Source of the DNA: a virus | Lineage: Duplodnaviria; Caudoviricetes | Virus record (IMG/VR): IMGVR_UViG_3300003316_000301 | Span: 91,980 to 155,979 of that record | Direction: 5' to 3' (one strand) | DNA length: 64,000 nucleotides | Part shown: piece by piece, positions 39,433-43,338 of the stretch | How positions within the stretch are numbered: the stretch's first letter is position 1 | Layout: every line of letters starts with the position of its first letter | Position numbers and translations under genes: made by a program | Notes under the pieces: generated by a model | Databases searched by the model: none | What the model saw: the letters and a program-made list of their open reading frames with translations, nothing else | Told to the model about the DNA's origin: nothing

Positions 39433-40329
39433 ATGACCGACCTGACCAGATCGAGCACCTCCCCCTTCGACGCGATCCGCCGCGAGGATGAGAACGGGGA
39501 GTACTGGCTCGCCCGGGACCTCCAGCCGCTGCTGGGGTACGCCCAGTGGCGCCGGTTCAACGACACGATCAACCGGGCCCGGGTCTCCGTGGCCGCCGCA
39601 GGCGGAGACGTCCGGCACCACTTTTCGCAGGTCAGCCAGGTTGCCGATGCTGGCAACCTGGGGACTCAGACCCGCTCGGACTTCCGGATGACCCGCTATG
39701 GGTGCTACCTGGTGGCCATGAACGGCGACACCTCCAAGAGGGAGATCGCCGACGCCCAGCAGTACTTCGCCGTCCAGACCCGCAGGGCCGAGGTGGCCGA
39801 GGAGCGCCCGGCCCTGCCCGGGACCTACCTGGAGGCCCTGAGGGCCCTCGTGGCCGAGGTGGAGGCCAAGGAGCGGGCCGAACTCCTCGCGGCCGAGAAG
39901 ACGGCCGAGGCGGACATGCTGAGGCCTCCTGCCGAGGCCTGGGAGACCCTCGCCGACACCGGCCAGGACTACTCGGTGAGGGAGGCGGCCTACATCCTGA
40001 AGCGGGACGCGGCCATCGCCGACCGTGTGGGACCCCGGCGCCTGTTCGACTGGATCGTGAGCCACGGGATGGCCCAGAGGAAGCCCACGGGGGCGTACGT
40101 GCCCTACGCGGACCACAGTGACCACCTGCGCCTGAAGCCCCAGTCCCGGCCCGATCACGAGTCCGGCGGCCTGAAGGAGGCCCACGCCCAGCTCCGGGTG
40201 ACCGTCAAGGGCCTGTCCTGGATCCAGCAGCGGATGCGCGAGGAGCTGAAGCCCGAGCTGGTTTCCGAGGGTCCCCGGGCCGAGGTGATCGACTTCACCG
40301 CGATCAGGACCGCGCCCCTGCGCCGGTAA
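39433..40329 (+). CDS. phage antirepressor (DinD/Bro-N-like N-domain plus KilAC/ANT C-domain)
   Basis: EYWLARDLQPLLGY..W..F, TRYGCYLVAMNGD..K.EIA.AQ.YFA.QTR, YSVREAA.IL, VTVKG. Confidence 0.88.
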   Translation: MTDLTRSSTSPFDAIRREDENGEYWLARDLQPLLGYAQWRRFNDTINRARVSVAAAGGDVRHHFSQVSQVADAGNLGTQTRSDFRMTRYGCYLVAMNGDTSKREIADAQQYFAVQTRRAEVAEERPALPGTYLEALRALVAEVEAKERAELLAAEKTAEADMLRPPAEAWETLADTGQDYSVREAAYILKRDAAIADRVGPRRLFDWIVSHGMAQRKPTGAYVPYADHSDHLRLKPQSRPDHESGGLKEAHAQLRVTVKGLSWIQQRMREELKPELVSEGPRAEVIDFTAIRTAPLRR

Positions 40330-40348
40330 CGCCGTGAGGGTGTTACCG
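40324..40348 (+). terminator. hairpin at the antirepressor stop
   Basis: CGGTAACGCC/GGTGTTACCG stem. Confidence 0.5.
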
Positions 40349-40398
40349 TGAGGGCCATAACATCCACGCCCCTGTTCCCAGGCGCGGTGTTCTGTCAG

Positions 40399-41181
40399 GC
40401 GAGAGCCCCTCGGACGTCACCGAAGGGCTCTCGCTGTTGGGTACGATCTGCGCACCCCCGGGGCCTGGACACACCCCGGGGGCTCCAGTGGGGACTGGGG
40501 AATGCAGAAAGGCCCCTCCGGTGCAAAACCCGCTCTCCACGAGTCGAGCGGGCCGGAGGGGCCTTCTGCGCTTCATTTCGGGACCGGGCGAACGCTTCTC
40601 CCAGGTTGGACGCCTGAGTTCTGCCCTCAGTCCGGAGTCCACCGACCAGGCACAGCCGGTGTATCTCGACAGACCTCTTGAACTCAGGTGCTCCCTGCGA
40701 CCTTTTCCGGGGCTGCGGGAGGACGTAACCCACAAGCGAGCCGGTTGTGCCAACAACCGGATGCCCCTCCCGGCGAGTGGAGTTGCAGACTCGCGGGGAC
40801 CTTTATTGTGACCGCCCTTGGCACGGCGGGGGAGGCCCTCTGGAGTTCAGATAAAGCCGAGGGCGGTCACACGCACTCCCGTTGAGGAGCGCTAGTGCAG
40901 GACCGGAGATTCGCACTCCGAACGGTCAGCCGGATCAACAGGGCATTCGGCTGCCGCGCGGCCGTAGGGCGGGTTCCTGTGCACCCATCGGGCCGTCCTG
41001 CTCCTCGTGCAATTTTGAGCGTTCCTGGTCGCCAAGCGGAGTTGGGGCTCCGCGAGGGACCGTCGTACAGCCCGTCCGGCCGCAGAGGTAGCCATCGGGG
41101 CACGAGGAGTGGCGCTCGACCTGTCCTACGAGTTCTGACGCGGGTCCTCGTTCTTGCCGCCATCCCCGGAAGGGGTTGACG
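40399..41181 (-). ncRNA. candidate large structured non-coding RNA with a tRNA-like module
   Basis: Consensus promoter directly upstream, no credible ORF or RBS, more than 12 helices, many with G-U pairs that work on the - strand, terminator-like hairpins at 40504-40569 and 40399-40434. Confidence 0.65.
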
Positions 41182-41187
41182 TCGTCA

Positions 41188-41217
41188 AGGTTACTACAAC
41201 GAATCCCGGGGAGTCAA
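41188..41217 (-). promoter_or_regulatory. phage promoter TTGACT-N18-TAACCT
   Basis: Close match to the promoter family; TTGAC-GTC-GTCAA palindrome at 41176-41188. Confidence 0.8.
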
Positions 41218-41219
41218 TT

Positions 41220-41495
41220 TCAGATCCGGGAGTCCTTGCAGCAGCACCAGCCGTCCATCTGGACCCCGAACCCCTCCCTCAGCTCATCGTCGCAGGAGAA
41301 GCAGCAGGGACCGATGTGGTGCCGGGAGGTGCACCAGAACCCGGAGAGGTCCTGGGAGCGGCTCAGGGCGGGCCAGAAGCGCCTGAACCACCGGAGCTGG
41401 GACGCGGGAGCCCACTTGGCCACCACGTCCGGCACACGGCCGCGTACGGGCTTGTGGACGGGCTCGTAGGAGGGGTCCTCCAGGGGCGCGGTCAC
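41220..41495 (-). CDS. small Cys-rich hypothetical protein
   Basis: GTGA coupling; C..HH..CC.SC...CCC. Confidence 0.6.
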   Translation of the reverse strand: MTAPLEDPSYEPVHKPVRGRVPDVVAKWAPASQLRWFRRFWPALSRSQDLSGFWCTSRHHIGPCCFSCDDELREGFGVQMDGWCCCKDSRI

Positions 41496-43042
41496 CCCTC
41501 CATCCCCTCGGTGAGCATCTGCTTGCGCATGGCGGCCGTCATGTACTCCTCGCCGGTGACTCCCCGGCCGAGCAGCTCGTCCGATTGCACATTGCCCCGC
41601 AGCATCGAGTACATCAGGCCGACCTCCACCGTCCGGCGGGCCAGCATCGAGCGCACGGTCACCGAGGGGCCGCCGGATCCGATCCGGCTCACCCGGTTCA
41701 GGCGCTGGGTGCGGATGCCGTACGTGGTCGCCATGTCGTACTCGACGAGGTAGGAGGCCTCGGGGACGTTGATCCCCCGGGCCCCGGCGTCCGAGGAGAG
41801 CAGCACCGCTCCCCCGGGATGGGCCTTGAAGGAGTCCAGCTCGTGGAGCATGAACACCCGGATGCCCGCCTTCGTCAGGGCCTCCGCGAGCCACGGGATC
41901 ACCGAGGGGCCGAAGAAGGTGAAGACCATGGCCTTGTCCTCCTGGTCCAGCACCACCGGCTCCAGATAGGCCACGAGGGCCTCTGTCTTGGCGCTGGAGA
42001 GGTTCAGGAAGTACTCCAGGCCGAATTCCTCCACCAGGCCCTTGGCGAGCTTGGAGGAGCCCTCCTGGGCGCTGTGGACGACCGCTCTGGGGTGAGCGCA
42101 GATCTGCCGCAGGGCCTGGAGCTGTCCTCCCACCCCGTCGAGCTCCTTGACGAGGTCGTAGAGCTTGCGCTGGTCGGCGTCCAGCTCCACCCAGAGGGCC
42201 TCCTCGGTCATCCGGGGGAACTGATCGATCACGTCGGCGTCCGTCTTGGACTTCGAGAGCATCAGCGGCTGGCAGATCGCCGCGAACTCCTCGGTGCGGT
42301 GGTCCCAGTAGCGGGCCTTGCCGTAGATGTCCCGGCCCCGCACGAAGTAGCTCTCGAACTCCTTGACCAGCGGCATGGACTGCGGCCTGAGCAGCCGGAG
42401 CTGGTTGAAGGAGTTCTCGTAGTCCTTGCGGATCGAGGTGGCCGTCATCATGACCGTGGGCAGGTTTTTAAAAACGCGCCTCAGGGTCTTCAGGGTGTGG
42501 TCGTACGCCTTGTAGGTGGCCGAGGTCCGGTTCGAGAGCTTGTCGGCCTCGTCGAAGATCACCATGGGGTGCGTTTGCTGGACCCTCTCCAGCAGCTCTC
42601 CGGACTCCACGGCCTTGCGGCGGTTGCGCATGACCGTCTTCACGAGGTCGGCCTTGCCGGTCTCGTACGTCGTGATCAAGACATCCGGGAGCGCTTCCTT
42701 AGCGAGCTTGTTCTTGCGCCCGGGACCGTGGTGGATGCGGACCGTGAGCTTCGTGAACCTCTCGAAGTCGTCCTTCCACTCCCTCAGCTTGTTCTTCTCG
42801 CACACGAGCAGCACGAAGTCCACCGTGTGGTCCTCGAACGCCAGGGCAGCGAGCTGCATGGCCGCGTGGGACTTCCCGAGGCCGGTGTCCCAGGCAAACA
42901 TCCACTCCGCCTGGGAGCCGTTCAGCATCCCCAGGTAGGCCTGGGCGACGTGCTCCGTCTGGAAGGGGTACAGGCCCCTCGGGGAGTAGTAGAGAGCCCC
43001 CTCGGGCCAGGCCGAGGGGGCTTCCAGAGTCTGTGCGGTCAC
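41492..43042 (-). CDS. SNF2-family helicase/translocase
   Basis: WDTGLGKS, FDEAD, MTAT, LRQICAHP, SDAGARGIN, QR..RV.RIG. Confidence 0.88.
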   Translation of the reverse strand: MTAQTLEAPSAWPEGALYYSPRGLYPFQTEHVAQAYLGMLNGSQAEWMFAWDTGLGKSHAAMQLAALAFEDHTVDFVLLVCEKNKLREWKDDFERFTKLTVRIHHGPGRKNKLAKEALPDVLITTYETGKADLVKTVMRNRRKAVESGELLERVQQTHPMVIFDEADKLSNRTSATYKAYDHTLKTLRRVFKNLPTVMMTATSIRKDYENSFNQLRLLRPQSMPLVKEFESYFVRGRDIYGKARYWDHRTEEFAAICQPLMLSKSKTDADVIDQFPRMTEEALWVELDADQRKLYDLVKELDGVGGQLQALRQICAHPRAVVHSAQEGSSKLAKGLVEEFGLEYFLNLSSAKTEALVAYLEPVVLDQEDKAMVFTFFGPSVIPWLAEALTKAGIRVFMLHELDSFKAHPGGAVLLSSDAGARGINVPEASYLVEYDMATTYGIRTQRLNRVSRIGSGGPSVTVRSMLARRTVEVGLMYSMLRGNVQSDELLGRGVTGEEYMTAAMRKQMLTEGMEG

Positions 43043-43338
43043 GCCGTCACCGTCGCTTCGTTCACCTCGAAGGTCCAGGAGACCTGCGCCAGTCCCCCGA
43101 CGGGGTCCAGGAGCTTGACGGCCACCAGGTCCTCGCCGCACTTCAGCTCCGCCGCGATGGGACCGGAGCCCATCAGCGGCAGGATCGCGATGAAGGTGAC
43201 GTGGTCCTCTCCGACGACCTTTCTCGCCTCCCCCATGTAGGGACCGGCGGTGATCGTCCAGGGTCCGGGATCGTGCAGGGCCCGTTCGATCTGCCGGGCA
43301 CGCAAGACCATGCGAGCGGCCACGTGATCGAGGCTCAT
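43039..43338 (-). CDS. hypothetical protein
   Basis: GGAGG RBS; coupled to the SNF2 gene. Confidence 0.65.
   Translation of the reverse strand: MSLDHVAARMVLRARQIERALHDPGPWTITAGPYMGEARKVVGEDHVTFIAILPLMGSGPIAAELKCGEDLVAVKLLDPVGGLAQVSWTFEVNEATVTA

Follow-up and report, generated by a model that had tools for sequence, protein, structure and literature searches.

A candidate family of large structured noncoding RNA with a nested tRNA-like module in a clade of high-GC phages

Besides ribosomal RNA, RNase P RNA and introns, large (>500 nucleotides, nt) and intricate RNAs are very rare in bacteria and phages (GOLLD, ROOL, OLE and a few others), and each of them has led to unexpected structural biology. 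ROOL occurs mostly in Firmicutes-type genomes, and GOLLD is reportedly, to go by a title in a reference list, widespread among Mycobacterium transfer RNA (tRNA) arrays. GOLLD has a conserved 3′ region and a variable 5′ region, with tRNAs sometimes nested in the linker, and it assembles into an RNA-only cage, a type of assembly reported in 2025 (PMC12286853). One domain of YrlA, in turn, is tRNA-like, with an acceptor and a T arm, and RNAs of this type occur in mycobacteriophages (PMC4201824). The present work deals with the minus strand of positions 40399-41181 of a 64,000-nt stretch of phage DNA (the window), which is the final 64 kb of the 155,979-bp IMG/VR virus record IMGVR_UViG_3300003316_000301, rated complete by CheckV; the G+C content of the window is 67%. 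The locus very probably encodes a large (~700-780 nt) structured noncoding RNA of a family not described before. It has its own promoter, no open reading frame (ORF), 14 syntenic and covarying copies, a bias toward G-U pairs in its helices and no match in Rfam, which upholds the new large noncoding RNA proposed in the initial annotation of this DNA. The phages that carry the family form a clade with high-GC genomes of ~150-160 kb; judged by helicase similarity, their closest cultured relatives are actinobacteriophages.

The promoter is located on the minus strand at 41188-41217 and is formed by a -35 element TTGACT (41212-41217), an 18-nt spacer and a -10 element TAACCT (41188-41193). The coordinates given for it in the initial annotation were exact, and the predicted transcript should start near 41180-41182. 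It was not called by a strict scan for promoters of the Escherichia coli sigma-70 type, because TAACCT matches TATAAT at only 3/6 positions; this -10 element fits the actinobacterial form TAnnnT. All the homologues (14/14) keep a -35 TTGnnn, the 18-nt spacer and a -10 TAnnnT. The genome holds three further copies of the 45-mer that covers the promoter (41176-41220), each of them on the minus strand, at G000:C1:74796-74840 (L003), 86256-86300 (L002) and 88632-88676 (L004). In each of them a GGAGG is found ~30 nt on, and then an ATG and a gene with biased G+C content at third codon positions (GC3); therefore, the same element heads three ordinary operons. At the RNA locus it heads ~800 nt with neither a ribosome-binding site nor an ORF. 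It was also possible to see that the four copies share TTGAC, a conserved spacer and TAACCT followed by the palindrome TTGACGACGTCAA at the transcript start, which looks like a putative operator common to the four units.

The absence of coding signal, also claimed at the outset, was confirmed. The GC3 spread among frames was 0.4-0.6 in the three flanking genes versus 0.03-0.20 over 40330-41220, and no GC3 bias was seen in the ORFs mechanically listed within this interval. This includes the only ATG-led one (40867-41163, 98 amino acids, aa), whose ATG is missing in L005 and L183, the homologues checked. In 12 related contigs the gene callers of the source databases placed no gene in the equivalent gap, which measures 740-1100 nt among the homologues.

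The collection of homologues was started from the flanking proteins. This yielded 13 further copies, 14 in all, from IMG/VR, JGI metagenomes, an NCBI metagenome assembly and Logan assemblies. The gene order is the same in all of them (YadA-head-like protein, 630-800-aa protein, small ORF, SNF2 helicase, 0-3 small ORFs, noncoding region and convergent antirepressor), and the identity of the flanking proteins to those of the window is 47-88%. A model of the 3′ domain of the RNA (R1) scored 126-185 bits in 14/14 copies. The RNA is present as a single copy per genome in the four records that were searched whole (4/4), one of them a 159.7-kb genome with terminal repeats. In the alignment, invariant blocks stand between stretches that vary in sequence and length, a pattern typical of structured RNA.

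About 12 helices were located on the minus-strand transcription unit (40330-41220). The folding energy gave z = -8.4 for the minus strand and z = -7.4 for the plus strand (20 shuffles each); the degree of structure greatly exceeds chance, but the strand cannot be told from energy by itself. In the tested helices there were 47 G-U/U-G versus 5 A-C/C-A combinations and, taking into account this excess together with the promoter, the RNA is placed on the minus strand, so that the strand argument that the initial annotation had drawn from G-U pairs holds. Neither a DNA cruciform nor an RNA from the opposite strand would yield such an asymmetry. For the 3′ domain, six helices were written down and scored on a plain MAFFT alignment of the 14 sequences. 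Paired cells amounted to 89.7%, versus 76% in shuffles and 38-54% when the partners were slid by 1-3 columns; compensatory pairs were 21/34 (12.6 ± 1.8 in shuffles), and the covariation score was 0.425 versus 0.196, with 0/500 shuffles reaching the observed score. In the middle region, 18/35 predicted pairs were compensatory within the closest five sequences, and the equivalent hairpins covary family-wide. Two of the checks named with the initial annotation, folding energy against shuffles and covariation among collected homologues, came out on the side of the RNA. Regarding the helices it had listed, those at 40860-40871/40807-40818, 40873-40892, 40741-40760, 40613-40688 and 40504-40569 have compensatory changes in the homologues, and the 10-bp stem 41100-41109/41001-41010 did not stand as drawn, since only a 4-bp CUCC/GGAG core of it is found in some homologues. 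These patterns point to strong selection on the fold and on about six invariant unpaired motifs.

The 5′ part of the RNA (5′ hairpin, block A and hairpin H2) varies from lineage to lineage. It is followed by an optional tRNA mimic, a run of hairpins and a strongly conserved 3′ domain, where one hairpin and a three-way junction precede the last hairpin and its near-invariant loop of 10-12 nt. All the features described below are on the minus strand. The 5′ terminal hairpin GUCAACCCC / GGGGAUGGC (41159-41180) was obtained in the minimum free energy (MFE) fold; a hairpin is found here in homologues, and larger inserts take its place in some. Block A, GGACAGGUCGAGCGCCAC (41109-41126), has its first 12 nt invariant in 12/14 copies, L192 and L327 being diverged or unaligned. 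Its segment GGUCGAGC may pair with GCAAGAAC at 41150-41157; only one side varies, so covariation does not prove the pairing, and for the 5′ pairing of GGUCGAGC with GCAAGACC there was no covariation support. The MFE pairing of block A with the loop of junction arm 2 in the window copy was not adopted, as it is absent in the L006/L022 subfamily. After a conserved ACGG comes the long hairpin H2 (41027-41061), whose sequences are wholly different between subfamilies while the pairing is preserved; 5/7 aligned stem pairs are compensatory family-wide. The middle region (40741-40892) comprises the hairpin 40873-40892, the 12-bp stem 40860-40871/40807-40818 and the hairpins 40764-40798 and 40741-40760.

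The 3′ domain is opened by hairpin H1 (40714-40734), UGUGGG / CCCGCA in the window and GYGRG/CYYGC in the family, with 95% of cells paired, 5/6 pairs compensatory and a G-C to A-U change in five sequences. Between H1 and the junction lies block C, CCGGAAAAGG (40701-40710), nearly invariant in the alignment and apparently single-stranded. The three-way junction (40580-40695), defined by covariation and model R1, is closed by the helix GGGA (40692-40695) / UCCC (40580-40583), with 100% of cells paired and changes from A-U to G-C. Its arm 1 (40613-40688) carries block D, GGUGGACUCCGG (40632-40643), and its helices covary, as does the helix of arm 2, a hairpin at 40584-40604. The internal loop of arm 1 resembles a kink-turn (K-turn) by eye only, with no covariation support. 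Block E, UCCCGAAAUGA (40573-40583), contributes its first four bases to the closing helix, and the remainder is conserved and unpaired. The final hairpin, T1 (40504-40569), is composite and offers the clearest example of covariation, with 94% of cells paired, 6/8 pairs compensatory and up to four Watson-Crick pair types per position. Its outer stem is GAAGG.../...CCUUU, and the inner stem (40529-40552), which bears the loop, covaries throughout. The T1 loop GACUCGUGGA (40536-40545; CAACUYGUGGAG in the family, 10-12 nt) is near-invariant and conserved in 14/14 copies. A pairing AAGG/CCUU suggested by RNAalifold was rejected, since in every copy CCUU has a local partner in the GAAGG of the T1 base. 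A search of the phage genome for complements to the invariant loops gave nothing beyond the locus and a few codon-like 11-12-mers, judged to be chance.

Downstream, the RNA meets hairpins of the terminator type, opposite the end of the convergent antirepressor gene. Hairpin T2, CCCCCGGGG / CCCCGGGGG (40455-40482), with a conserved loop UGUGUCC, was seen in alignments and in the MFE fold and is present in ~8/14 copies; it probably belongs to the RNA itself or acts as an additional terminator. The G+C-rich hairpin T3 (40399-40434), formed in the MFE folds of both strands and present in the window, L183, L184, L187 and L188, is the outermost possible 3′ end of the RNA and probably also the terminator of the antirepressor gene. 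The terminator-like hairpins that had been described at 40504-40569 and 40399-40434 are present, with T2 as a third.

In most copies, a tRNA-like module of ~105 nt sits between the 5′ part and the middle region. In the window it spans 40897-41001, is cloverleaf-like, and has 88% of cells paired and 16/23 pairs compensatory. It presents the two tRNA-type elements, a 7-bp acceptor stem (40995-41001/40897-40903; 100% paired, four covarying pairs) and a T arm (40904-40920) with a 5-bp stem (95% paired, 5/5 pairs covarying) and a 7-nt loop UGCGAAU. The D and anticodon arms are replaced by two enlarged arms with complementary loops. These form a kissing helix, ACAGG (40976-40980) with CCUGU (40938-40942), paired in 8/8 sequences (100%) with 3/5 pairs compensatory, and the loops co-vary between phages as ACAGG/CCUGU, ACGGGA/UCCCGU, GUGGGA/UCCCAC, GAGGGGA/UCCCCUC and GUGGGG/CCCCGC. 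Considering that the arm loops kiss, the mimic is a self-closed structure that presents no anticodon. The T loop UGCGAAU of most copies departs from the universal U55, and the 3′ side runs on as A-C-N, not CCA. No tRNA was recognised by ARAGORN in the window, L005, L006 and L022, nor by the Rfam tRNA model at E ≤ 10 on the locus; for transfer-messenger RNA (tmRNA), ARAGORN and Rfam were also negative, and the acceptor stem has no G3:U70 pair. Of the module, L187 retains just a clean acceptor-plus-T minihelix of 12 bp and L189 a similar, less regular one, and it is absent in L005 and L188. The core function can thus not depend on the mimic, which two members lack and two others have only as the minihelix. 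The acceptor-T minihelix is the part of tRNAs recognised by RNase P, RNase Z and the CCA-adding enzyme. The kissing-arm form of tRNA mimicry matched no Rfam family and was not found in the literature searched.

The family is, as far as seen, limited to one clade. No match to model R1 was obtained in relatives with helicases at 30-60% identity (L196, L198, L199 and L330-L347), and three pattern scans of IMG/VR gave no additional member. A pattern scan with GGTGGACTCC...CCCGAAATG over metagenome and genome collections gave 159 loci, nearly all by chance, of which nhmmer kept two, both of them copies of L006. In L199 (helicase 58% identical) the flanking genes are kept, with only a 287-nt gap replacing the RNA; in L196 (60%) and L198 (54%) the slot holds other noncoding DNA that is not recognised by R1. 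The gap of L196 (L196:5556-6545) is ~1 kb long, noncoding and preceded by the same type of promoter, and the tRNA-like sequence in it is more canonical (T loop UUCGAAU) and has long inserts; another RNA cassette, unrelated to the first, may occupy the slot here. More distant relatives (helicase 30-54% identical), namely L328 (the same as L198), L330, L336, L341, L342 and L343, also have stretches of 0.5-1.2 kb that lack GC3 bias in the 4-kb flank 3′ of the SNF2 helicase. Some of these stretches start 0.6-1 kb past the helicase end, and none of them matches the model of the 3′ domain.

The surroundings of the locus in the window were also described. The antirepressor gene (Bro-N/KilAC; 39433-40329, plus strand) is GC3-biased and convergent to the RNA. 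On the other side, between the promoter and the SNF2 helicase gene (41492-43141, minus strand, GC3-biased), there is a small GC3-biased Cys-rich ORF of 83 aa (41220-41471, minus strand) that ends in ...CCFSCDDE...WCCCKDSRI; it is 53-55% identical in L006 and L022, is not present in L005, and gave no match in Pfam and PHROG searches. The second helicase that flanks the locus is of the DinG type (PHROG DNA helicase; Helicase_C_2 in related contigs). The top GenBank phage matches of the SNF2 helicase are from Gordonia, Mycobacterium and Rhodococcus phages, at just 24-26% identity, and a blastn search against the phage records of GenBank gave no DNA match. The lineage is an uncultured, large, high-GC one and its host is probably an actinobacterium, since the closest helicase matches are of these phages. 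Inteins occur in several relatives (proteins P0017, P0034, P0040, P0041 and P0050; L199:8132-9452), one of them in the SNF2 helicase (~860 aa, with a LAGLIDADG_3 domain) and another in the neighbouring DinG-type helicase (Intein_splicing). Short palindromes (CGGTAAC...GTTACCG) lie between the antirepressor stop and hairpin T3 (window 40330-40398), and the 3′ flanks of the relatives L183, L184, L192 and L194 carry the palindrome TGACTCTATCA or CCTGAC-N5-ATCAGG, which in L194 is found upstream of the RNA promoter too; such 3′-flank palindromes may be operator sites. The same phage has a TROVE/Ro60 (Rsr) gene (L349:619-2337, in G000:C1:45811-49011; 572 aa, 68.7 bits, above the Pfam cut-off) and, just upstream of it, two sub-threshold YrlA matches (L349:39-104 and 472-539; 36-38 bits, the gathering score being 69). 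Together they probably make up a module of Rsr and Y RNA such as is known from mycobacteriophages.

Comparison with described families was carried out with the 4227 families of Rfam 15. None of them reached its gathering score across the whole window and, at E ≤ 10 on 40000-41600, there were only chance matches to microRNA or small RNA (sRNA) families; the homologues L005, L006 and L022 at gathering, and six related loci at E ≤ 0.01, also gave chance matches only. GOLLD (RF02032, gathering threshold 150 bits) had no match at gathering and none at E ≤ 10 on 40000-41600 or in the whole genome. ROOL (RF03087) was absent from the all-Rfam runs and from the whole genome at E ≤ 10, where control genomes gave none either, which makes this last negative weak alone. 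YrlA (RF02553) had no match at E ≤ 10 in 40000-41600. Hence none of the families that the initial annotation had listed for comparison (GOLLD, ROOL, tmRNA, RNase P and Y RNA) was matched in the window or in the homologues. It could be argued that the RNA is a very divergent GOLLD, ROOL or other described RNA missed by Rfam models that are too narrow, considering that it is phage-encoded, ~750 nt long, conserved at 3′ and variable at 5′ with a tRNA-like insert as in GOLLD (PMC12286853). The negatives on this 1.6-kb region, those of RF02032 and RF03087 genome-wide and those of the homologues make this very improbable, and the sole tRNA gene of the phage is 76 kb away, so that there is no tRNA island nearby. 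It is extremely improbable that the locus is a decayed tRNA gene or the remnant of a tRNA array that, together with the stacked terminators of convergent operons, has no function as a single RNA. The degenerate T loop of the cloverleaf, the more canonical tRNA-like sequence in the same slot of L196 and the bidirectional hairpins at the 3′ end could be read in that way, but the tRNA-like part is the dispensable one and not the core, the element has its own conserved promoter, and outside the module there are invariant blocks of 10-18 nt and compensatory changes in a dozen helices, maintained across phages whose proteins are 47-88% identical.

The initial annotation had also tied the RNA to replication through an adjacent "rep-like" gene, and this part was not sustained. 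The neighbouring 406-aa protein had no match to a Rep family, or to any other family, in Pfam or PHROGs. A replication element would be an untranslated transcript that primes or activates the phage origin, its folds serving primer formation, as in the RNA II primer of ColE1 or the R-loop origins of phage T4; the position between an SNF2 and a DinG-type helicase and the long untranslated transcript with its own promoter would suit it. Against it, no direct repeats or iterons were found in the region, the G+C content shows no marked dip (lowest value 0.63, versus 0.67 for the window) and the cumulative GC skew has no inflection at the locus; transcription heads toward a convergent gene and into three hairpins, L199 retains the flanks with the element gone, and both the nested tRNA mimic and the invariant loops are foreign to known RNA primers. 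Taken together, this origin function is improbable. The convergent antirepressor gene, adjacent in 14/14 copies, could instead suggest a regulator of the antirepressor operon, whose transcription would collide with the gene or read antisense into it, the folds tuning termination. Three hairpins stand between the RNA and the 3′ end of that gene, there is no overlap with its 5′ end, and ~700 nt of covarying structure with invariant loops far exceed what termination control needs, which leaves such a regulator hardly credible.

Several points weigh against reading the locus as the gene of a large noncoding RNA. The plus strand (z = -7.4) folds almost as well as the minus strand (z = -8.4). With 14 related sequences the sample is small, phylogeny is not accounted for in the shuffle control, and the structures were tested on the very sequences from which they had been derived; of the measures used, the count of compensatory pairs and the control with slid partners are the more robust ones, and each gives a clear result. 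Since blocks A, C, D and E and the T1 loop are invariant, covariation cannot reveal their partners. A relative with a 58% identical helicase has no RNA and relatives at 54-60% have unrelated DNA in its place, so the RNA is dispensable or replaceable. The transcript, its ends and any processing are predictions from the DNA. Finally, the data indicate no specific function, and any specific functional reading is unlikely to be the right one.

If a large noncoding RNA is indeed made here, it would be a stable structural RNA produced during infection that acts in trans, either by itself or at the core of a particle formed with proteins. The invariant loops and the single-stranded blocks could provide tertiary contacts or binding sites, and the tRNA mimic could be an accessory module for docking tRNA-binding proteins; alternatively, RNase P and RNase Z might excise the mimic and so split the transcript. 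As a doubtful proposal, drawn by analogy, the RNA could be the actinophage counterpart of GOLLD and ROOL, that is, an independently evolved particle-forming RNA with a covalently attached, kissing-locked tRNA mimic. During infection, either the particle or its mimic would then serve to capture or distract tRNA-binding factors of the host, such as processing enzymes or tRNA-targeting defence nucleases. The size of the transcript suits in vitro synthesis, so its fold, self-assembly and cleavage by RNase P are directly testable.

With respect to known systems, the family is new in that it has no sequence or model similarity to GOLLD, ROOL or OLE, and its covariation is unusually clear for so few sequences. 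YrlA shares with the phage RNA the tRNA-like acceptor and T arms; the phage RNA is seven times longer and its tRNA-like module is optional. It is not adjacent to Rsr either, the TROVE gene lying at ~46.4-48.1 kb and the RNA at 132.4-133.2 kb of the genome, 85 kb apart. MALAT1 also embeds a tRNA-like fold (mascRNA) in a long noncoding transcript, which is cut by RNase P and RNase Z to give new RNA ends; this system is eukaryotic and has no homology to the phage RNA, whose cleavage is hypothetical. Like the phage RNA, ROOL is large, ornate, phage-associated and without known protein partner (PMC12286853), but it measures ~580 nt, is found near tRNA islands, and its covariance model gives no match to the phage RNA. 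The closest parallel in layout is GOLLD: the locus has what characterises it, a phage-encoded RNA of ~800 nt with conserved 3′ and variable 5′ regions and, sometimes, a nested tRNA, although this is a resemblance of layout only. The organisation is the same in both RNAs, and the function is not known for either (PMC12286853). They differ in that GOLLD sometimes nests a real tRNA whereas the phage RNA has a closed tRNA mimic and no tRNA island near it. If the two are unrelated, the layout would have arisen twice, which argues that the layout reflects function.

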